Part shown: in pieces, positions 8,184-63,811 of the stretch | Layout: every line of letters starts with the position of its first letter | Position numbering within the stretch: position 1 is the stretch's first letter | IMG/VR virus record: IMGVR_UViG_3300013958_000126 | Span: 1-64,000 of that record | Length of the DNA: 64,000 nt | Source: a virus | Direction: 5' to 3' (one strand) | Program-made: the position numbers and the translations under genes | Notes under the pieces: generated by a model | Told to the model about the DNA's origin: nothing | Seen by the model: only the letters and a program-made list of their open reading frames with translations | Database searches by the model: none

Positions 8184-8374
8184 TTAAAAACCTCTTTAGA
8201 ATCAGTTCCTTTCTTAAATCCAAAGAACGGAACATCTTCTTTAAAAGTATAATCATCATTAATATAGTAACATGGATGCTTTTTTGTCTTTATAAAGAAG
8301 CATTCCTCTTGCGTTAACTCACAACAGTTAAATAAAAAATTTTCTCTATAATAATCACAATTGAGACAATTCAT
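8168..8374 (-). CDS. Small Cys-rich hypothetical protein
   Basis: 68 aa, CxxC-type cysteines. Confidence 0.35.
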   Translation of the reverse strand: MNCLNCDYYRENFLFNCCELTQEECFFIKTKKHPCYYINDDYTFKEDVPFFGFKKGTDSKEVFKWQNI

Positions 8375-8515
8375 TTTAGTTTTTTACTCCCTTTAACTCA
8401 TTAACAATGGTAACAAAAACGCCCATAAGCACCATGCTGAATGCGTGACTTCAATGCCTACAATTACTGCTAATGCAGTTGAAATCCATGCTGCTGCTTT
8501 TGCAAATTCCATATC

Positions 8516-8758
8516 CTAATTCTCCTTCAATACCATAATTACTGCATCACAGATACCAATAATTCTTTGAAATTTTTCATCCTTCATACAAGCATTTACG
8601 CTAGATATCTCATATCCATTTTTCGCAAGCTCTTTTATTTCAGACATCCATTCAACAACAATGTTACTACCGGATTTTTCCTGAGACGTTTTTTTATCTG
8701 GTGGTGATACGTAAGGCAATTGTTGCGGCCTTCCTGGTGTCATATCTGCTTCCTCCAT
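8516..8758 (-). CDS. Hypothetical protein
   Basis: 80-aa ORF. Confidence 0.35.
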   Translation of the reverse strand: MEEADMTPGRPQQLPYVSPPDKKTSQEKSGSNIVVEWMSEIKELAKNGYEISSVNACMKDEKFQRIIGICDAVIMVLKEN

Positions 8759-8796
8759 TAATTTAATATAATTCCTTTAATGTTTTTATCATAATT

Positions 8797-9372
8797 TTAA
8801 TTCTCCTTTATGCTTTCCATAAGTTCACTACGAATTTCATTATACATTTTATGTAACTTAGGATTAACAAAAGTCATCCATTCTCGCCGTTTATCCTGTA
8901 TCATAAGTGCTCTCAACATGGTCCCAGAGATGGGTAATTCTTCACGATTAATGATTAATTCGGTTGTGTTCTTTAAATCTTTCTTGTCGAACCATCCACT
9001 CCGGCTATCATCATTACCATAAATCATTACATCTGGATTTTTATAAATATATCGATCTGCATTTTGAAGAAGATATCTACCCCAATCTGGTGTGATATCA
9101 TTTTCATCAGTAAGGTCTGATAATGCATAAATCATAATGTTTGGATCATCACCATATACTTCACGTATCATCTTGATTCTAGTATTAACATTCAAAGGAT
9201 TACGTTTTGTCCCACATTCTTGTGCACTGCCAACAAGAATAAGCATCCGATCACAAAGCAATAACCCAGTATCAATAAGTTTTTCATGGCCTTTGTGGAA
9301 CGTTTGAAAACGCCCACAAACAAGCCCAACATCATATGGTTTCATGTTATTTCTTCTCCTCTTTAATTCCAA
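8797..9372 (-). CDS. nadM: Nicotinamide/nicotinate mononucleotide adenylyltransferase (NadM-type NMNAT)
   Basis: 191 aa; cytidylyltransferase-fold signature GRFQTFHKGH (HxGH) as in archaeal/phage NMNATs. Confidence 0.75.
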   Translation of the reverse strand: MELKRRRNNMKPYDVGLVCGRFQTFHKGHEKLIDTGLLLCDRMLILVGSAQECGTKRNPLNVNTRIKMIREVYGDDPNIMIYALSDLTDENDITPDWGRYLLQNADRYIYKNPDVMIYGNDDSRSGWFDKKDLKNTTELIINREELPISGTMLRALMIQDKRREWMTFVNPKLHKMYNEIRSELMESIKEN

Positions 9373-9607
9373 GTGTATAAATAAATGTTACTAAGAACAC
9401 AATGGAAAAAGCGATATATATAATAATTGCTGCAGGAATAGTAAATATAACTGTAAGAAATATATATATCTTACCGAACCAATTTTTATTTTGGGACCAC
9501 TTTTTATATTCTTTTATTGGTAATAATTCATCAATTGCACAATTAATTATTAAAATTGTTGTGAAAAGAATTTCGATTAACAAGAATGATATAAATATGT
9601 TCTCCAT
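9347..9607 (-). CDS. Small membrane protein
   Basis: 86 aa, two hydrophobic helices. Confidence 0.4.
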   Translation of the reverse strand: MENIFISFLLIEILFTTILIINCAIDELLPIKEYKKWSQNKNWFGKIYIFLTVIFTIPAAIIIYIAFSIVFLVTFIYTLGIKEEKK

Positions 9608-44227: not shown

Positions 44228-44304
44228 GTTTACTGCCTCCTTAAATATACATTTCAGTGGTTACTATTTTCTTCTGTAATGATCCGCGCGACATCATTAC
44301 AAAT

Positions 44305-44377
44305 GTGATAAGAGTGGACTCGAACCACCGACCTCACTTTTGTAGTGCGCTCTTTCTCCCAACTGAGCTACTTATCA
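44305..44377 (-). tRNA. tRNA-like gene with canonical acceptor, D and T arms but non-canonical anticodon arm
   Basis: Acceptor TGATAAG/CTTATCA, D-arm GCTCAGTTGGGAG, T-arm GGTGGTTCGAGTCCACT; anticodon arm CGCAC-TACAAAA-GTGAG has a G.A mismatch and A33 (possible anticodon CAA). Confidence 0.45.
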
Positions 44378-44582
44378 CTTTTCATGCATGACCTGTCGTG
44401 CTGCAGTCACAACAGGATTATGTGTTCTTTGATCCGCTCAATTCCCTACATTTTCTCTAAAGCTGGATATTTTTACTTATAAAACATCTCAAAAAAACAC
44501 CAGTTTCACGCCATAACTAGAAACGGCTTATTTCTTATTGGAACTCTACAGCCTATAAAAGTCACTCCTTCATCAGGAGAAA

Positions 44583-46535: not shown

Positions 46536-46620
46536 ACGGCGGTAGTGGGATTCGAACCCACACGAGCTACTGCTCAATAGAGTCAAAGTCTATTATGTCT
46601 AGCCAATTTCATCATACCGC
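46536..46620 (-). tRNA. Type II tRNA (long variable arm) with apparent anticodon UUG
   Basis: Anticodon stem-loop ATAGA-CTTTGAC-TCTAT, variable arm TGAGCAGTAGCTCGT, T-arm GTGGGTTCGAATCCCAC, acceptor GCGGTAT/TACCGC; identity ambiguous (Gln anticodon on Leu/Ser-type body). Confidence 0.55.
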
Positions 46621-46753
46621 TACATTCATTGTTTGTATAATTAAATTTCTTTCTTCTTTTTATTTAGCACAGGGAGCTTTCACTCCTCTGTGCTGTTGTC
46701 ATCCTTGACTATGTATTTAGTATAGCATATCAAGTTTCGTTTGTCAATATGCA

Positions 46754-46773: not shown

Positions 46774-47283
46774 GTTGATTTTGCTTATATAATATGAATT
46801 TGCACGTTTCTCAATCAATTTCGCAATCAATCTTCGCTCTGCCAGTTCCCTACCAAACTTATAATCAAATTGATCTCCTGCTTCAATATTACAAGAAGCC
46901 ATAGCTTTTACACCGTCGAATTCTACCTGTACTCTCTTACCATTAGTTCTAACCTTATATGCTAATAACTTTTCTCTACAAGAAAATGGATCCATAAAAA
47001 AAGTGTAACCTTCTTTCCAGTCTCCCCATTTGTACTTAGGTTTTATTTCTTTATCTAATTTATTAACATGTTCTTGTGTAACAAGAACCGGCACATTGTT
47101 TGTAATGTTATTCTCTTTGCATAATGACTTATATTTTTCTGCTCCAAGATTAACATCAATTGATTTATATGTACCATCTTTAAGTTTTAAAACTATTAAT
47201 AATGTCCCATCTGGACAAAAAATCCCAATATTAATACTGTCTACTTCGTATTTATATTCTTCTCCAAATAATGTAAATCCCAT
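46762..47283 (-). CDS. Hypothetical protein
   Basis: 173-aa ORF. Confidence 0.45.
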   Translation of the reverse strand: MGFTLFGEEYKYEVDSINIGIFCPDGTLLIVLKLKDGTYKSIDVNLGAEKYKSLCKENNITNNVPVLVTQEHVNKLDKEIKPKYKWGDWKEGYTFFMDPFSCREKLLAYKVRTNGKRVQVEFDGVKAMASCNIEAGDQFDYKFGRELAERRLIAKLIEKRANSYYISKINKTN

Positions 47284-47397
47284 AATTTTTCTCCTTTATT
47301 TCTTTAATTTAATTTTTGCAACCAGAATACCTGCCAGAAAAGCAATGACAAGGCATACAACAAATGTTTCTATATTTAAAGCAACCATAATTACTCC

Positions 47398-48744
47398 TTA
47401 CTCAATGATCTTAAATGATACATCAGTACGTCTATTCATTGCGCGATGTTCATCAGTATCATTATCAACAACAGGATTGCTGGATCCATTTCCAACTACT
47501 ACAATACGTCCGTTAGAAATTCCATTCATAACAAAATAGTTTTTAACAGCTTCTGCTCTTTGTAAAGACAACTTCTGATTATACTCGTCTTCAGGATCTG
47601 ATTCCGGATTAGGGTCTGTATTTCCTGCAATTTCAATTATTGCACCGTCAAGTACCTTTGCAATGTCAATAAACTTATTAAGTTCTTTAGATGCTGCAGC
47701 AGAATCAGAGAATTTTGCCGTATTCTGAATAAATGTAACAGATGCTTTACCCTGTAATAAAGCTTCAGTATCCTGAATTTCCTTTTTATTATCCTCTGTA
47801 ACCTTTACAGTATTTGTATTAGACACTTCCGTTGCACTAAATTTATCTGAAATAGCATTAATATATGTATCATCAAAAATACTATTAACAAGATCAGCAT
47901 TTACAGACTCACCAATTGATGTCCATACGTTACACATATCTGAATAAATTGTCTTTGCAGTTCCATTTAACAGATCTAAATTATCTTTCCATGTTGTCAG
48001 TTTTGCAGACTCCGTATTTGCTACAATATCTTCATCTGATGCAGTATTAAACATAGGCATTACTTCACGAATTGCATTAAATTCTGTATTATACATATCT
48101 GCAGCTTCCAGAGATCCCTGGATAAATTTCTCCACTACATCTGCATGTGCTTCTGCAAATTTCTTATCAAACAGAATTCCATCCATAACAAGATTTGAAG
48201 AACTTGCAGTGCTAAATAATACATGTGCGTCTGTCATATTCTTTGCCTGAGTCAGGTATGGTTCCCAGGTTGCTGCAACATCAATCTGACCGGCAAAAAA
48301 TGCTTTTGCTGCATCATCTGGTGTTGAAAATAATACAAGATTATCAATAATTTTCGCTTTCTTCTTGGCTGAAAGATCAGAATTATTTACAAACCATACT
48401 ACAAGTGTTTGAGCTTCAGAAAATTCTGGTACACCAATTTTAGCATTTACAAGATCATTTACATTCTGAATAGAAGACTTCGCAATAATACCGTCGCCAC
48501 CATTTGAGTAATTTGTAATATACGGCATCACCACTTCTTTTCCAGCATCAGTGAATTTCTTAGATAAGAATGCAGTTCTGTTAATTGTATAACCTGCAGC
48601 GTTCAGATCTCCTTTAATCAGAGCATTACTTGATTGTGTTGCGTCGTTAATAACATTAATATTTACTTTTACGCCAAGTTTATCATAGATGGAACCTGAC
48701 TGAGTTGTTAAGCCGCCATTAGCGTCAATAATGGATTTCCACAT
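47398..48744 (-). CDS. Substrate-binding protein (NMT1/SsuA/TauA family) fused to C-terminal OmpA-like peptidoglycan-binding domain; lacks signal peptide
   Basis: 448 aa; SBP fold over ~340 aa, then OmpA-C block LSLQRAEAVKNYF...NRRTDVSF. Confidence 0.55.
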   Translation of the reverse strand: MWKSIIDANGGLTTQSGSIYDKLGVKVNINVINDATQSSNALIKGDLNAAGYTINRTAFLSKKFTDAGKEVVMPYITNYSNGGDGIIAKSSIQNVNDLVNAKIGVPEFSEAQTLVVWFVNNSDLSAKKKAKIIDNLVLFSTPDDAAKAFFAGQIDVAATWEPYLTQAKNMTDAHVLFSTASSSNLVMDGILFDKKFAEAHADVVEKFIQGSLEAADMYNTEFNAIREVMPMFNTASDEDIVANTESAKLTTWKDNLDLLNGTAKTIYSDMCNVWTSIGESVNADLVNSIFDDTYINAISDKFSATEVSNTNTVKVTEDNKKEIQDTEALLQGKASVTFIQNTAKFSDSAAASKELNKFIDIAKVLDGAIIEIAGNTDPNPESDPEDEYNQKLSLQRAEAVKNYFVMNGISNGRIVVVGNGSSNPVVDNDTDEHRAMNRRTDVSFKIIE

Positions 48745-48746
48745 TA

Positions 48747-49595
48747 CTATTGATTCAGTTCGTTACGCTGAACTGTTGATTTCCGTATAGGATATTTTAT
48801 ATTTGGATTATGCCAACTGCCACCATTATTAATTCTATAAATCTGAGTAACAGCTCGACCATATAATTTAGCAATATACTTCATAGGAATGCTAGGATCT
48901 TCTAACAATTTAATAATTTCTTCTAATTCATCATGAGTTAATCCTAATTCTCTGATAGGATATTCATCGTTTTCATCATAATATGTAACACCTTTATTAA
49001 TGTTTAAAATTACATATCTTTCTACTTTAAACATTCTAGCAATATAGTCTATACTATAAAAGCCATCTCGTAACATTTTTTTGATTAATTTAATTTTTTC
49101 ATGATTTATAGATGGACATATTAAAGGTTCTCTGATAGGATAAGTGATATCATTTTTTCTCCAAGCTATTCCGGTATTAACATTTCGAATAGTTTTTATT
49201 GATACATTATACTTTTCGGCAAGCTTATCAAATTCAACGTTCGTTTCTTTTAAATCTTTCATCAATAAATCAACCTGCTGTTGTGTTAACTTACTTTGCG
49301 GATTATTTTCTCCAGAACTATCTTGCCCACCATTTTGAATATTATATCCGAACTCTTTCTCATTACTGCGATATAATTTAATATATTCCTTTTCTTTTGT
49401 ATTATAATCTTCTCCGAAATATAATGTTTCTACCGAAAAATTTTCCCATCCATATTTATGTATTGCATTATAGATAGGATGATTCATGCGTTTATCATGC
49501 CGATGCTCTTTAATACATCTTTCTAAATTATTAGTTTGTCCTATATAAATCTTATGATTTATGTTATTCTCTATTTTGTATACATATTTCTCCAA
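48747..49595 (-). CDS. GIY-YIG homing endonuclease
   Basis: 282 aa; N-terminal YVYKIENNINHKIYIGQT (GIY...YIG), C-terminal repeated NUMOD-like DNA-binding modules (YPIREL repeats). Confidence 0.8.
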   Translation of the reverse strand: MEKYVYKIENNINHKIYIGQTNNLERCIKEHRHDKRMNHPIYNAIHKYGWENFSVETLYFGEDYNTKEKEYIKLYRSNEKEFGYNIQNGGQDSSGENNPQSKLTQQQVDLLMKDLKETNVEFDKLAEKYNVSIKTIRNVNTGIAWRKNDITYPIREPLICPSINHEKIKLIKKMLRDGFYSIDYIARMFKVERYVILNINKGVTYYDENDEYPIRELGLTHDELEEIIKLLEDPSIPMKYIAKLYGRAVTQIYRINNGGSWHNPNIKYPIRKSTVQRNELNQ

Positions 49596-49976
49596 TTCTT
49601 TATATTCTCCTTACACGTTACAACACTATATTTTTCAATATAGATTAGAGTACATCACCATCTTTTATAAGATGCGCCTCCACTGGCTTTAACGAATTTA
49701 AAAGCTCTTACTCGTTGAACCTTATCCTGTTCGGATTTTGGAAGCTGATTCCCCATTCTTACAGCACTTAGCACCTTCTCATATTTCAATGAAAAAGCTT
49801 TTATTTCAGCTTATGCCATCTTACTAATTTTTTCTGCTTTCGCCACATTCACACTTATGCGTATTTCATCATTATGTTGTAGTTTAGTAAGCTTTAGGGT
49901 GGCTACGTGTATAGCCTTAATTCCAGCAATTCAAAGGCGTTCGATCACATTGTCACCAATGTAAAAGGGCTAGAAA

Positions 49977-50264
49977 TTAACCAATCCATTCATCTAATGA
50001 CACATTAATAACATTATCATCAGCAGTTTTCGCTTCATCTTTCTTTACAGTGTTTTTCTTGTCATCATCCTCATTATTTGAAGTAGATTCTGTTTTAGCG
50101 ACTGTTTCTGATGTAGTAGTACCGGATACTGATTTATCTTTCTTCGTCTGAATCATTCCGGTCTGTGTTCCTGCAAAGATACCTCCTCCAAGCAGTGCTA
50201 CAATCAGAACCATAATCAGAATTTTTGCTGCTTTAGTTAATCTAAATCTTTTTGCTTTCTTCAT
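49977..50264 (-). CDS. Small membrane-anchored protein (possible upstream exon / N-terminal part of the split SBP gene)
   Basis: 95 aa; N-terminal signal-anchor helix then Ser/Thr/Asp/Lys-rich linker. Confidence 0.4.
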   Translation of the reverse strand: MKKAKRFRLTKAAKILIMVLIVALLGGGIFAGTQTGMIQTKKDKSVSGTTTSETVAKTESTSNNEDDDKKNTVKKDEAKTADDNVINVSLDEWIG

Positions 50265-50275
50265 TTTACTACTCC

Positions 50276-51013
50276 TTATTTATTATATTTCTTTTTCAAG
50301 CTGTTCAGATAATCATTGCTGTTATTCTTTTTTGCTTCCGCTTCAGCCTTTTCAAGTTTGGTAGACATCTTATTATTGTGTACTACTTTAGATCCTTCCA
50401 CAATAGCATCCAGATCTCTGTTTTTATCTCGAACAGAATCAAGCAATTTATCTGTTGCCGTGACATTTTTCAATTCATCCATATCATCATAGACTTCCTG
50501 AAGCTGCTTCTTTACTTTCATATTCTCCACAACTTCTTTGCTCTCACGCTTCAGACTTCTCAGATTCTTTTCACATCTTTCCTGCGTCTCTTTTGCTGCG
50601 TCTGTAGCTTCTTTATAAGCATTTACCAATCCAGTAACTCTGCGAATATCTGAAAGAATCTCTTCTCTTTCCTCTGCCTTTAACTGTGCAAGCTCGATCT
50701 GATTAGTTTTAACCAGAGATTCACACTCTGCTTCAACATTAACAAGTCGCTTTCTTTTTCTATCAAGATCTTTCTGCGCATTGCTCAGTTTTCCAGCAGC
50801 AATCTTATATGCATTATCCGCTTTATTATAAGATTCCTGAGCCTGGTCAATTTTTTCTTCGTAGATAGCCTCTGCGCCTTCTGGTGTGGTTGCCATATCT
50901 TTGATAAATAATCTAGTAAATCCAGACAGTAATTTTCTTGCTTCCGGAAACAAGATCAGTATCAATACAATAACAACCACTGCAACAATAAAAATCAGTT
51001 TACCAAGTTCCAT
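50276..51013 (-). CDS. PspA/IM30-like coiled-coil protein with N-terminal TM helix
   Basis: 245 aa; PspA-like N-terminal amphipathic block and heptad-rich remainder. Confidence 0.4.
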   Translation of the reverse strand: MELGKLIFIVAVVVIVLILILFPEARKLLSGFTRLFIKDMATTPEGAEAIYEEKIDQAQESYNKADNAYKIAAGKLSNAQKDLDRKRKRLVNVEAECESLVKTNQIELAQLKAEEREEILSDIRRVTGLVNAYKEATDAAKETQERCEKNLRSLKRESKEVVENMKVKKQLQEVYDDMDELKNVTATDKLLDSVRDKNRDLDAIVEGSKVVHNNKMSTKLEKAEAEAKKNNSNDYLNSLKKKYNK

Positions 51014-51546
51014 TATGCATTTCCTCCAATAGTAAAGTTAATTAAATTTTTGATTCTATCAATTTCAGTAGTAATAGTTTCATCAGATGTTTTTGTTTCA
51101 GCCCTTTGATCAGCAATCTCCTTTTCCAAACGCTCGATTTCCATTTTGTGTTCTTCAATAGCATTTTCTTTTTTAGTAACAACAGCTTCAGAATCACAAA
51201 TAATCTTTGAGAGAATGTCGCTTAAAACATCAACTCTTTTTTCTCCGTCTGCCTCAACATCAGTCACTGTCAAGCCAAATACACCAAGTGTTGCCAACAC
51301 TGAATTTCTTTTTGTTTCTGTCGTCATTTCCTTTGGAAATGATTTTATTAACTCCTCCACTTTAAAAATTGACTGTGTTTTATCTGCCAGATTATTCTGG
51401 CTGTAAATATCATCAATCAAAGTGTCAGTGTTAACTGAATCAAGCTCTGCGTTGGTCTCGGTTGTATCAAAATCAGTATCTATGTCTGGAATATCAGGCG
51501 TCTCATCCGGTACTTCTTCCACAAATAAGTTTTTTAAAATTCCCAT
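51013..51546 (-). CDS. Hypothetical acidic coiled-coil protein
   Basis: 177-aa ORF, stop overlaps next start (ATAATG). Confidence 0.45.
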   Translation of the reverse strand: MGILKNLFVEEVPDETPDIPDIDTDFDTTETNAELDSVNTDTLIDDIYSQNNLADKTQSIFKVEELIKSFPKEMTTETKRNSVLATLGVFGLTVTDVEADGEKRVDVLSDILSKIICDSEAVVTKKENAIEEHKMEIERLEKEIADQRAETKTSDETITTEIDRIKNLINFTIGGNA

Positions 51547-51558
51547 AGTATTTCCTTC

Positions 51559-52170
51559 CTAAAATTTCAATATTTCATCACACATTATCTTTGCTTCTGA
51601 TTCACTGTGTGTGACCATGATCACAGTATTATCAAGTAACCTATGCAAATCCATAATTAACAATTGCATATTACTTCGTGTCTCAGCATCCAGCGCTGAC
51701 AACGGTTCATCCATTAAAAGAATCTTTGGTTTTGCAAATAACGTCCTTGCTAACGCAAGTCGCTGTTTCATGCCTCCAGATAACTGCTTAGGATATTTAT
51801 TTTCGTTTCCATTCAAACCAACTAAATAAAGCATCTTCTTAGCTGCTTCTATATCTTCTGGTTCTACATGGCCTTTAACTTTTTTAGCAATTAGTATATT
51901 GTCAAGACAATTTAACCAATCAAAAGAAGTATAGTTCTGATGCATCATATATACTTCATTTTTACTTGCTTTTGTAACCGGAGTATTATCTATGATAATT
52001 TCTCCAGATAACGGTTTGATTAATCCTGCAACCGTCCTTAACAAAGTTGTCTTGCCGCATCCAGATTCTCCAAGGATCCCGTAGATCTTATTATCAAAAT
52101 TATAATTAAACCCAGATAAAAGTGGTTTATCTCTGCTGTATCCTGTGTATAAATCATGAATTTTAATCAT
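51559..52170 (-). CDS. ABC transporter ATP-binding protein (short SsuB/TauB-like)
   Basis: 203 aa; Walker [10 protein letters not shown], signature [13 protein letters not shown], Walker [12 protein letters not shown]. Confidence 0.8.
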
Positions 52171-52909
52171 TTATATACCTCCACTTAAAAATCTTCTTTA
52201 CTAACCATTTAGATACATAATCAAATATAACACTGATGATCATAATCACAATGATTGCCATAAATACTAAATCTGTTCTCCCTCTGGAAGATGATTGCTG
52301 GATTATATATCCAAGTCCATATTGAGCATTTATTGTTTCAGCTACTGCAATATATGTAAATCCAATTCCATACATCATAATGTAGCTATTTAATACTCCT
52401 GGCAATGATGCCGGAATCTGGATTCTCCATATCGTTTGTAATTTGCTCATTCCAATTGTAAGTCCGGTATCTATTAGATCGTTGTTCACTTCCTCCAGGC
52501 ATAATACAACTGACGGCATCATATATACGAATGTTGCGATAAACAAAAATACAATTTTCATCATTTCATCTATCCCGAACCACATAATAAGCAATGGATA
52601 AAATGCAGTCACCGGAATATATCGCATGACACTGATCATCGGATTAAGAATATCCTTAGCAATTCTGGAATTATAAACCAGAATCGCTATAGGAAATGCT
52701 ATTGCTCCAGATATAAATGTAGCAGCAGTTATTCTTAGAAACGAATATTCAATTGCCTTAATCAACTGTCCTGTATGTATCATGCCTATCAGATCATCAA
52801 ATACCGTAACTGGTTCCGGAATGAACAAGGGATTTACGTGTTTTGCTGTGATATCCCAAATAAGGAGTATCGAAGCAAGTAAAAGAATTCTTTTTGTAAA
52901 TGTTTTCAT
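52163..52909 (-). CDS. ABC transporter permease (SsuC/TauC-like)
   Basis: 248 aa, 6 TM helices, binding-protein-dependent transport signature region. Confidence 0.7.
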
Positions 52910-53096
52910 TTTATTTCCCTTAAAGAATATGGCGTAAAATATTATACAAAGCTTCTAATTTTCCGGTTTCCTCGTATATAGCTTCTACAATTACAGCTAA
53001 CACCGCAGCACATATAAAACACAAAATTAGTAGTAAAATCAATATCACAATCACCATAAACAGAAATGCCGCAATATCTCCGAGTATTCCCATATA

Positions 53097-63323: not shown

Positions 63324-63811
63324 TTTAAAATCACCTTACCCCTTTCTAAACAAGTATATCTAATATAATAAGTTTTACCATTTTTAGTAACTATTCCCCA
63401 ATTACGAATTGGAACCCCTGTATCTATCATCTTCTTCAATTTCTCAATTCGCCTTCTGTCAAAACACCATTCAATCATGTAAGAATTAAAGTTCTCAATA
63501 AATTCTTCTTTATCAAAAACAAGAACTCCATTTTTTAAATATGATATGGTCTCTTCTTTTGAGTGACCATCCTCCATAATTATTTTAAAGTCAGTTAATG
63601 GTTTTTCCTCTATTATTTCACCTTCTAATGTTTTATAAGACTGCTTATATGTATATTCTGTAAATTTTTGTATTTTATTACAAATCGGACAATACAAATC
63701 TTTAATATGCCCCTTTTCTCTCTGTTGTCCAATTTTTCTTGGGATAGGGAACTCAAGTCCACATTCTGGGCATATAAAATTTGATATAGTGCTTCGTTTC
63801 TTTTTAGACAT
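63320..63811 (-). CDS. Zinc-finger hypothetical protein
   Basis: 163 aa; CPECG ... CPICN. Confidence 0.45.
   Translation of the reverse strand: MSKKKRSTISNFICPECGLEFPIPRKIGQQREKGHIKDLYCPICNKIQKFTEYTYKQSYKTLEGEIIEEKPLTDFKIIMEDGHSKEETISYLKNGVLVFDKEEFIENFNSYMIEWCFDRRRIEKLKKMIDTGVPIRNWGIVTKNGKTYYIRYTCLERGKVILK

Follow-up and report, generated by a model that had tools for sequence, protein, structure and literature searches.

The minus strand of positions 1 to 64,000 of IMG/VR virus record IMGVR_UViG_3300013958_000126 (the whole 64,000-nucleotide stretch is referred to here as the window) contains, between 47,398 and 50,264, what appear to be three genes and a gap: a short open reading frame (ORF) for an anchor helix, a stretch with no credible gene, an ORF for a GIY-YIG endonuclease, and an ORF for a substrate-binding protein (SBP) with an OmpA domain. 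The question raised by this arrangement is whether the two outer ORFs are one gene, and if so what divides them. The initial annotation, made from the sequence alone, proposed a gene interrupted by an endonuclease-containing group I intron, with a free-standing homing endonuclease gene as the alternative. We assign a probability of about 0.9 to the segment 49979..48742(-) being a mobile group I intron of the phage subgroup-IA type, located in the anchored SBP-OmpA gene of a large Bacillota phage. At the sequence level, each criterion other than the Rfam score fits a mobile group I intron with a GIY-YIG homing endonuclease. The first of the two proposals is thus upheld by exact insertion boundaries, a homologue that Rfam accepts, a match to a phage-built covariance model, covariation, a U and a G at the splice sites together with P1/P10 pairing, and a relative that carries the ribozyme without the endonuclease.

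Boundaries of the insertion in the SBP-OmpA gene

The downstream ORF starts abruptly, as the initial annotation had observed: its 448 residues include no N-terminal hydrophobic segment, and it matches PHROG 25518 only from profile position 78, so that the first 77 positions are absent. Its ATG is formed by the final three bases of the insertion and is not a genuine start codon; it is separated from the endonuclease stop codon by 2 nt, rather than the 3 nt first given, and no Shine-Dalgarno sequence precedes it. The 95-aa upstream ORF had been described as an anchor helix plus polar linker, the very part that the SBP ORF lacks, and both the ORF itself and the alignment with homologues agree. 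The 5′ exon covers the helix at the N-terminus (an anchor or a signal), the linker and the SBP as far as its first conserved residues (...NVSLDEWIG), and the 3′ exon encodes an NMT1/TauA-like substrate-binding domain followed by a C-terminal OmpA-like peptidoglycan-binding domain.

Joining the two ORFs at GGT|TGG (...DEWIG|WKS...) gives a 542-aa protein which, used as a query in a protein search, finds more than 100 uninterrupted proteins of 522–559 aa, the best of them (543–547 aa) with 93–96% identity across 100% of the query. More than 115 uninterrupted homologues read ...SLDEWIG|WKSIIDANGG... across the insertion site. Of the 120 cluster representatives listed, 118 have the motif SLDEWIGWKSIIDANGG, or a close variant of it, unbroken; the remaining two begin MWKSIIDANGG, as does the downstream ORF of the window. 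Comparison with intron-less homologues, which had been suggested as a check, also gives exact boundaries at the DNA level. Syntenic intron-less loci (L004–L006) align without gaps across the junction GGT|TGG, such that intron-less contigs read GATGAATGGATTGGT|TGGAAATCCATTAT where the window has GATGAATGGATTGGT[TAATTT...TAATG]TGGAAATCCATTAT. The insertion is 1,238 nt long, is preceded by U and ends in G, and since it starts with UAAUUU an in-frame UAA stop codon directly follows the 5′ exon. Its position is set by the intron-less alleles with a 1-nt ambiguity at a T, which the U/G rule resolves. On these comparisons the split of the SBP-OmpA gene is not a chance arrangement.

The putative ribozyme and the endonuclease gene

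The first 384 nt of the insertion fold as P1–P9 with a five-helix extension of P5 (P5a–e) and a hairpin (P4a) in J4/5. This structure was written on the window sequence from homology with an intron of Enterocloster phage CB457P1 (L003), with L099, which is a diverged IMG/VR copy located at the same site, and with ten further introns of the long form. In the window sequence every core helix can be paired, across the P3–P8 and P4–P6 domains and with the P3/P7 pseudoknot. The segment between the 95-aa and endonuclease ORFs had been called a 380-nt non-coding gap; it is 381 nt long and indeed holds no credible gene, but it is occupied by the predicted group I ribozyme core and is not a plain gap. 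A 44-aa ORF with a TTG start (49655–49789(-)) lies wholly within ribozyme helices P5e through P8 and is almost certainly not a gene.

Covariation was counted for 96 pairs over 15 sequences, with 87% of cells paired as compared to 32–46% with slid partners and 57 pairs changed on both sides; the structure used for this count derives from one of the 15 sequences. P4, P4a, P5, P5a–e, P6, P7 and P9 are 89–100% paired; P1, P2, P3, P7.1 and P8 pair less well because MAFFT misaligns these variable regions between distant introns. Compensatory changes support P3, P5, P6, P7, P8 and P9. Across loci P7 takes the forms GACTA/TAGTC, GACCA/TGGTC, GATCA/TGATC, GAGTA/TACTC (the window) and GAGCA/TGCTC, and a UACUC to UAUUC polymorphism retains the pairing as G.U. 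Within the trio formed by the window, L099 and L144, a third lineage at the same site, P3 is CGCCU/AGGCG or CUCCU/AGGAG, P4a is GGCUAU/GUAGCC, GAGCAU/AUGCUC or GAGUA/UACUC, and P7, P8 and P9 have two-sided changes as well. Additional helices P7.1 and P7.2 mark introns of the IA2-like kind within subgroup IA; L003 has both hairpins between P7 and the P3 3′ strand, and two are likewise present in L023; the window, L099 and L144 have one. The initial annotation named the lack of a P1–P9 structure or of a terminal (omega) G as evidence against an intron; a covarying P1–P9 core is present, and the insertion ends in G.

Rfam group I models, the check originally proposed, do not report this element. 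At the gathering threshold a search of the whole window returns only four tRNAs and no group I intron, and at E≤10 over 47300–50400 (3.1 kb) there is no group I match. RF00028 applied to the gap alone, in a 421-nt sub-search, gives a mis-aligned match of 19 bits (E 0.013; gathering threshold 50), a miss attributable to insertions of ~190 nt in J4/5 and P5 and to the changed P7 sequence. The single-sequence minimum free energy fold of the gap was uninformative, with z = -2.2 and the 5′ end paired incorrectly. The same Rfam model gives 93.6 bits over its full length for L003, which is collinear with the window from the first bases through P9, 47.6 bits for L144 and no match for L099.

BLASTN of the gap against phage genomes matched 139 records, mostly Staphylococcus and Enterococcus Herelleviridae together with Enterocloster phages; in the three records inspected the matches are in unannotated stretches right after truncated genes, with an endonuclease-like ORF next in two of the three. 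Two pattern scans of IMG/VR recovered four kinds of locus: near-identical copies in the same gene, the diverged same-site copy L099, further CB457P1-type copies, and more than 100 other phage introns with a common J5/4-P4-P6-J6/7-P7 signature. A covariance model (R1) was built from 39 aligned short-form phage introns, with the window type excluded, and contains P3, P4, P5, P6, P8 and P9, P7 being treated as a pseudoknot for counting only; in its alignment 93% of cells are paired as compared to 32–42% with slid partners, and 23 pairs are changed on both sides.

R1 finds one significant match in the window (49621–49782(-); 58.5 bits, E 2.5e-11), scores 111 bits on L003, 78 on L144, 74 on L099 and 43 on L128, and finds nothing in four intron-less loci. 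It mis-threads P3–P5 of the window because the real P5 carries an extension of ~170 nt, and its placement of a pseudo-P3/P4 inside that extension was rejected in favor of the homology-based threading. A second, weak match (63497–63578(+); 18.9 bits, E 0.017) covers only P8, the P7 3′ strand and P9, lies within a 163-aa ORF on the strand opposite to the genes, and is probably due to chance. In several other IMG/VR contigs two introns of the window class occur within 1–2.6 kb of each other, as in L017 (8560 and 9408) and L019 (719 and 1847) and also in L037, L083 and L089, which suggests single genes with multiple introns.

Both splice sites can be paired with a single internal guide sequence near the start of the intron. 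In P1 the guide GCC pairs with the GGU at the end of the 5′ exon, with U(-1) opposite G10 in a U.G pair at the splice site and the two exon Gs opposite C11 and C12, followed by two further intron pairs. P10 is a 7-bp helix between the guide AUUUCUA and the first bases of the 3′ exon, UGGAAAU, and runs on directly from P1. A U precedes the 5′ splice site, and the insertion ends ...UAAUG|UGG with G as the terminal base. P1 and P10 make ten contiguous pairs across the ligated junction, a number reached in 493 of 20,000 shuffles of the first 25 intron bases (2.5%) and at 6 of 1,605 other junction positions in the mRNA (0.4%). For L003, the 3′ splice site was worked out by hand from the reading frame and the P10 rule as G3712|C3713, which is in frame and has the pairing CUCAGAA/UUCUGAG; the ...AAUAGUAAU(A)G common to the window and L003 was rejected as a pair of homologous 3′ ends, as the L003 site is 20 nt further on.

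The endonuclease ORF has an N-terminal GIY-YIG domain followed by three helix-turn-helix (HTH)-like repeats, each ending in YPIR. It matches PF01541 over residues 3–78 with 26.6 bits (Pfam cut-off 22.6), HTH_7 with E 3e-11 and PHROG homing endonuclease families with E 6e-27. The I-TevI catalytic domain (1LN0, 1MK0) aligns at E 0.002, with YVY and IYIG opposite the two Tyr motifs, a Glu opposite E75 and GYN opposite N90; of the reference residues Y6, Y17, R27, E75 and N90, R27 has its Arg counterpart one position off in the pairwise alignment.

The ORF is predicted to be the loop of a long-range helix, P9.1, whose 5′ strand precedes it and whose 3′ strand falls within its last codons: UGUUG...CGUGUAAGGA (49625–49608) directly after P9 pairs with UCCUAUACG...CAACA (48792–48774) and closes a loop of ~815 nt. 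Most of the endonuclease Shine-Dalgarno sequence AAGGAG (49607–49612) is contained in P9.1. L099 has the same long-range helix with double changes (UGUCAUUUU.GUAUAGGAU with AUCCUAUAC..AAAAUGACA), and L144 has a shorter version with the 3′ strand kept in its endonuclease-less intron. P9.2 is UCAG/CUGA in the window and CGAG/CUCG in L099 and L144, amounting to two double changes; an alternative 3′-end hairpin, CAGUUC/GAACUG, is not conserved in L099 and was replaced by this covarying register. The endonuclease stop codon UAG (48747–48749) falls in the 3′ tail.

Alleles, selection and alternative explanations

Metagenomes contain the empty site, the intron with an endonuclease in two diverged lineages, and a 458-nt intron without one. 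Intron-less alleles dominate (118 of the 120 representatives listed), and the intron with its endonuclease is present in at least two host-gene lineages, those of the window and of L099 (3069–3968). The L099 endonuclease ORF is still open at the 3′ splice site and continues for 34 nt into exon 2 in another frame. L144 (279–737) has the 458-nt intron at the same site, with the endonuclease ORF deleted except for its last ~80 nt, a remnant that carries P9.1 and P9.2 strands. Empty and occupied alleles coexist at 93–96% protein identity. Around the junction a single exon haplotype, from -46 to +126, is common to six intron-bearing contigs, and further downstream these contigs have differing haplotypes, some of them also found in intron-less alleles, in a mosaic. 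This is the pattern that homing with co-conversion and subsequent recombination would leave, and simple linkage could produce it as well.

Between the window and L099, DNA identity is 75% in the core, 69% in the endonuclease gene and 75–76% in the exons, and protein identity is 54% for the endonuclease and 74% for the exons. In the same comparison exon 2 has a ratio of nonsynonymous to synonymous substitution rates (dN/dS) of 0.093 and the endonuclease one of 0.22, and the spliced gene as a whole, set against an intron-less allele, again gives 0.093; with dS ~1.5, near saturation, these values are rough. Their low level points to purifying selection on the host gene as well as on the endonuclease gene where the intron is present. 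The constraint on exon 2 between the window and L099, and the survival of the ribozyme without its ORF in L144, lend splicing indirect support. Since exon 2 lacks both anchor and signal and exon 1 gives no more than anchor and linker, a functional protein would require ligation of the exons. A promoter and terminator scan found no terminator-like site between the exons on the minus strand and no signal for separate transcripts, promoter-like matches being less than 2 standard deviations above the shuffled expectation.

In the mechanism that we propose, the whole operon would be transcribed into one RNA, on which a ribosome would halt at the UAA that opens the intron. The core would then fold, with a guanosine bound in P7 attacking the U.G site in P1; the terminal G would take the place of the guanosine and P10 would align the 3′ exon, such that ligation yields GGU-UGG and an mRNA for the 542-aa protein. 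The endonuclease would be translated from the TTG at 49595, with its ribosome-binding site partly buried in P9.1. In mixed infections it would be expected to cut intron-less alleles near GAATGGATTGGT|TGGAAATCC, and repair would copy the intron together with ~170 nt of flanking exon.

Several points weigh against assignment as a mobile group I intron. The window element is below the RF00028 gathering threshold (19 vs 50 bits), as are its closest relatives L144 (47.6 bits) and L099 (no match), and as a consequence of the R1 mis-threading it is homology and covariation, not a model score, that support the upstream half of the core. The P1/P10 statistic is supportive at a modest level, with 2.5% of shuffles reaching ten pairs, and P1 has only three exon pairs plus two intron pairs. 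P7.2 is missing, and a hairpin inserted in J4/5 is unusual, this joint being functionally sensitive. The dN/dS values are affected by saturation as stated, and we infer both exon splicing and endonuclease activity from sequence.

A further reading, one we consider unlikely, is that this lineage is a distinct structural variant of phage IA introns that regulates an auxiliary transporter and is not a neutral passenger. Three features may define such a variant: the covarying J4/5 hairpin, the five-helix P5 extension, and a P9.1 that encloses the ORF and buries its ribosome-binding site. If so, folding would couple endonuclease translation to splicing and would time or gate expression of the binding protein of an ATP-binding cassette (ABC) importer.

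It is quite improbable that the element is a decayed, non-splicing group I intron and the SBP-OmpA gene a pseudogene in such phages. The sub-threshold Rfam score, the short P1, the additional J4/5 hairpin with loss of P7.2, and the small minority of intron-bearing alleles (2 of the 120 representatives listed) would all be consistent with decay. However, three intron-bearing lineages that differ by ~25% in DNA all have both exons intact and in frame, and the exon 2 dN/dS between the window and L099 is that of a constrained gene. Moreover, every core helix pairs in the window, the differences between lineages are compensatory even in the extra J4/5 hairpin, and the P7 polymorphism keeps its G.U pair.

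The initial annotation's second option, that a free-standing GIY-YIG gene split the SBP gene and the halves are made as separate proteins, is very improbable. The genes-in-pieces ribonucleotide reductase of phage Aeh1 provides a precedent for such a split gene, translational coupling is conceivable with the downstream ATG just 2 nt past the endonuclease stop, and the absence of a group I match at the Rfam gathering threshold is what a free-standing gene would give. Against it, the insertion has 384 nt of covarying group I core ahead of the ORF, and L144 retains the ribozyme at the same site without the ORF. In L099 the endonuclease ORF is not stopped before the junction and enters exon 2 out of frame, and exon 2 on its own would give an extracytoplasmic binding protein with neither signal nor anchor, from an ATG lacking a Shine-Dalgarno sequence.

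An assembly artefact or another type of intervening element is extremely improbable: the window is probably metagenomic in origin, but the same 1,238-nt insertion with identical junctions is present in at least six independent contigs from different samples (the window and five others), an intein is excluded by the in-frame stop at the start of the insertion, and a group II intron is at odds with a 1.2 kb element that has a group I core and no reverse transcriptase.

Related introns, host gene and genomic context

Group I introns with endonuclease genes are classic in Bacillota phages and in T4. One of the closest known counterparts of the window intron is that of CB457P1 (OP172753.1 ~8294–9567, equivalent to L003 2439–3712), where the ORF is annotated as 'intron-associated endonuclease 1'. 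The two are alignable from UAAUU... through P9, with the P5 extension, the J6/7-P7 motif and the J8/7 motif in common, an ORF of GIY-YIG type 3′ of P9, and a single guide forming both P1 and P10. They differ in that the CB457P1 host gene encodes a hypothetical protein, P7.1 and P7.2 are both present, and the P4a and P5e hairpins are absent; the distance from the end of the endonuclease ORF to the 3′ splice site is 38 nt in CB457P1 and 5 nt in the window, and DNA identity is only ~78%, in parts of the core.

The T4 td (I-TevI) and nrdD/sunY (I-TevII) introns are subgroup-IA phage introns in protein-coding genes. In sunY the ORF is 3′ of the core and the distant 3′ end folds back, a layout that the window resembles. 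Both T4 introns share with the window an in-frame stop after the 5′ exon, td also begins with UAAUU, and I-TevI similarly has an N-terminal GIY-YIG catalytic domain and a C-terminal DNA-binding region. By contrast, the T4 host genes function in nucleotide metabolism and not as a transporter binding protein, the td ORF is in P6 whereas that of the window is in P9.1, and the DNA-binding part of I-TevI comprises a zinc finger, a helix and an HTH where the window has three HTH-like YPIR repeats; sequence identity between the two endonucleases is low (E 0.002). More generally, peripheral loops house the intron ORFs, the upstream exon is followed by an in-frame stop, and homing is accompanied by co-conversion of flanking markers (PMC3984707).

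Herelleviridae introns of Staphylococcus (Twort- and K-like) and Enterococcus (Kochikohdavirus) phages match the P5-extension/P4–P6 region (query nt 90–254) with 75–83% BLASTN identity, and align through the P7 5′ strand before diverging from the type represented by the window, L003 and L099; the present comparison located no endonuclease ORF in these introns. These matches are in unannotated stretches just downstream of truncated genes, e.g. a split ribonucleotide reductase large subunit. In Enterococcus phage vB_OCPT_Carl (L002; ON113167.1 25734–30879) that gene is annotated in at least three pieces, with an I-HmuI-like endonuclease gene and a second ORF between pieces and the match to the window core after the second piece; the introns are unannotated in that record. 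Many group I introns have also been reported in jumbo gut ('Jug') phages, with splicing confirmed by metatranscriptome reads; these introns average ~206 nt and are in terL, nrdD and polymerase genes, and the hosts are predicted to be Bacteroides or Phocaeicola (PMC12880540). The window phage differs from these in that its polymerase is nearest to those of Clostridioides and Bacillus phages.

Particular to the window intron are its host gene, which encodes a transporter binding protein, the hairpin in J4/5, the size of its P5 extension, the false negative with Rfam, and the coexistence of three states of the homing cycle; current understanding of how such elements work is unchanged by it. The annotation is corrected from three apparent genes and a gap to one 542-aa gene and one putative mobile intron, and phage group I introns would thereby extend to an envelope or transport gene, beyond the usual targets in DNA metabolism, terminase and lysin genes. 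An element scoring 19 bits against an Rfam threshold of 50 and 58.5 bits against a phage-built model is a false negative of the former, so intron counts in large phages are probably underestimates. The three states at one site offer a usable natural system for the study of intron turnover in uncultivated gut phages.

Table 1. Coordinates of features at the interrupted SBP-OmpA locus; helices are predictions, and exon and intron limits are fixed by intron-less alleles.
Feature	Coordinates	Strand	Basis
5′ ORF, 95 aa: basic N-terminus, single hydrophobic helix, Ser/Thr/Lys/Asp-rich linker	49977-50264	-	
Stretch of 381 nt without credible gene	49596-49976	-	ORF list
Endonuclease ORF, 282 aa, GIY-YIG and HTH_7 domains, TTG start	48747-49595	-	ORF list, Pfam
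3′ ORF, 448 aa, NMT1/THI5-like SBP and OmpA domains	47398-48744	-	ORF list, Pfam
5′ exon, ATG 50264 to GGT 49980, 95 codons	49980-50264	-	ORF, homologue junction, DNA boundary
Putative group I intron, 1,238 nt, begins UAAUUU, ends ...GUAAUG, terminal G = 48742	48742-49979	-	Intron-less loci L004-L006
3′ exon, begins UGG (Trp), 447 codons and stop	47398-48741	-	ORF, Pfam, homologues
Internal guide sequence AUUUCUAGCC, intron nt 3-12	49968-49977	-	P1 and P10 pairing
Ribozyme core and peripheral helices	49626-49964	-	Homology to L003, covariation, R1
P2	49945-49964	-	
P3 5′ strand	49933-49939	-	
P4 5′ strand	49923-49927	-	
Extra hairpin P4a in J4/5	49901-49916	-	
P5 with extension P5a-e	49763-49899	-	
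P5/P4 3′ strands	49744-49754	-	
P6	49720-49741	-	
J6/7 and P7 5′ strand GAGUA	49709-49719	-	
P7.1	49686-49705	-	
P3 3′ strand	49675-49681	-	
P8	49659-49674	-	
J8/7 and P7 3′ strand UACUC	49648-49658	-	
P9	49626-49643	-	
P9.1 5′ strand UGUUGUAACGUGUAAGGA, directly after P9	49608-49625	-	Duplex and mini-construct folds
P9.1 3′ strand UCCUAUACGGAAAUCAACA, within 3′ end of endonuclease ORF	48774-48792	-	Folds, L144
P9.2 hairpin UCAG/CUGA	48755-48771	-	Covariation with L099, L144
3′ tail AUCAAUAGUAAUG, 13 nt, ends in terminal G 48742		-	Element 3′ end
Upstream same-strand gene block	50276-52909	-	ORFs, Pfam, PHROG
ABC permease	52163-52909	-	
ABC ATPase	51559-52170	-	
177-aa protein and 245-aa PspA-like coiled-coil protein	in block 50276-52909	-	

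The SBP-OmpA gene follows a block of genes on the same strand (Table 1), the order of which is the same in intron-less relatives (L004–L006, L141–L143); in syntenic contigs the order is permease, ATPase, 177-aa protein, 245-aa protein, SBP-OmpA, 30-aa protein, 173-aa protein and AAA ATPase. The region 47398–52909(-) has the appearance of a complete ABC importer module, with a permease, an ATPase, two coiled-coil proteins and an anchored binding protein, the last being a membrane-anchored protein of the NitT/TauT type fused to an OmpA-like peptidoglycan-binding domain. The SBP-OmpA protein is a member of PHROG 25518, and among GenBank phages Bacillus phage G has its nearest relative, gp249 (47% identity); distant homologues of the SBP are found in Lak megaphages. 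A literature search on phage ABC importers with SBP-OmpA fusions returned nothing relevant.

Megablast of 47000–53000 against GenBank phages gave zero matches, so the phage itself is absent from that collection. The neighboring genes are, by their sequence matches, those of a large tailed phage, and the window encodes a DnaE-type DNA polymerase, exonuclease V/helicase, NrdD, a DnaB-like helicase, an NAD-dependent ligase, nicotinamide phosphoribosyltransferase, an RNA ligase and four tRNAs. The DnaE-type polymerase has its nearest relatives in large Clostridioides and Bacillus phages. Two of the tRNAs have unusual calls: tRNA-Cys (44304–44378(-); Rfam 41 bits) is called with anticodon ACA at position 36, and tRNA-Gln (UUG) (46536–46622(-); Rfam 49 bits) is 87 nt long, as tRNAs with a long variable arm typically are.

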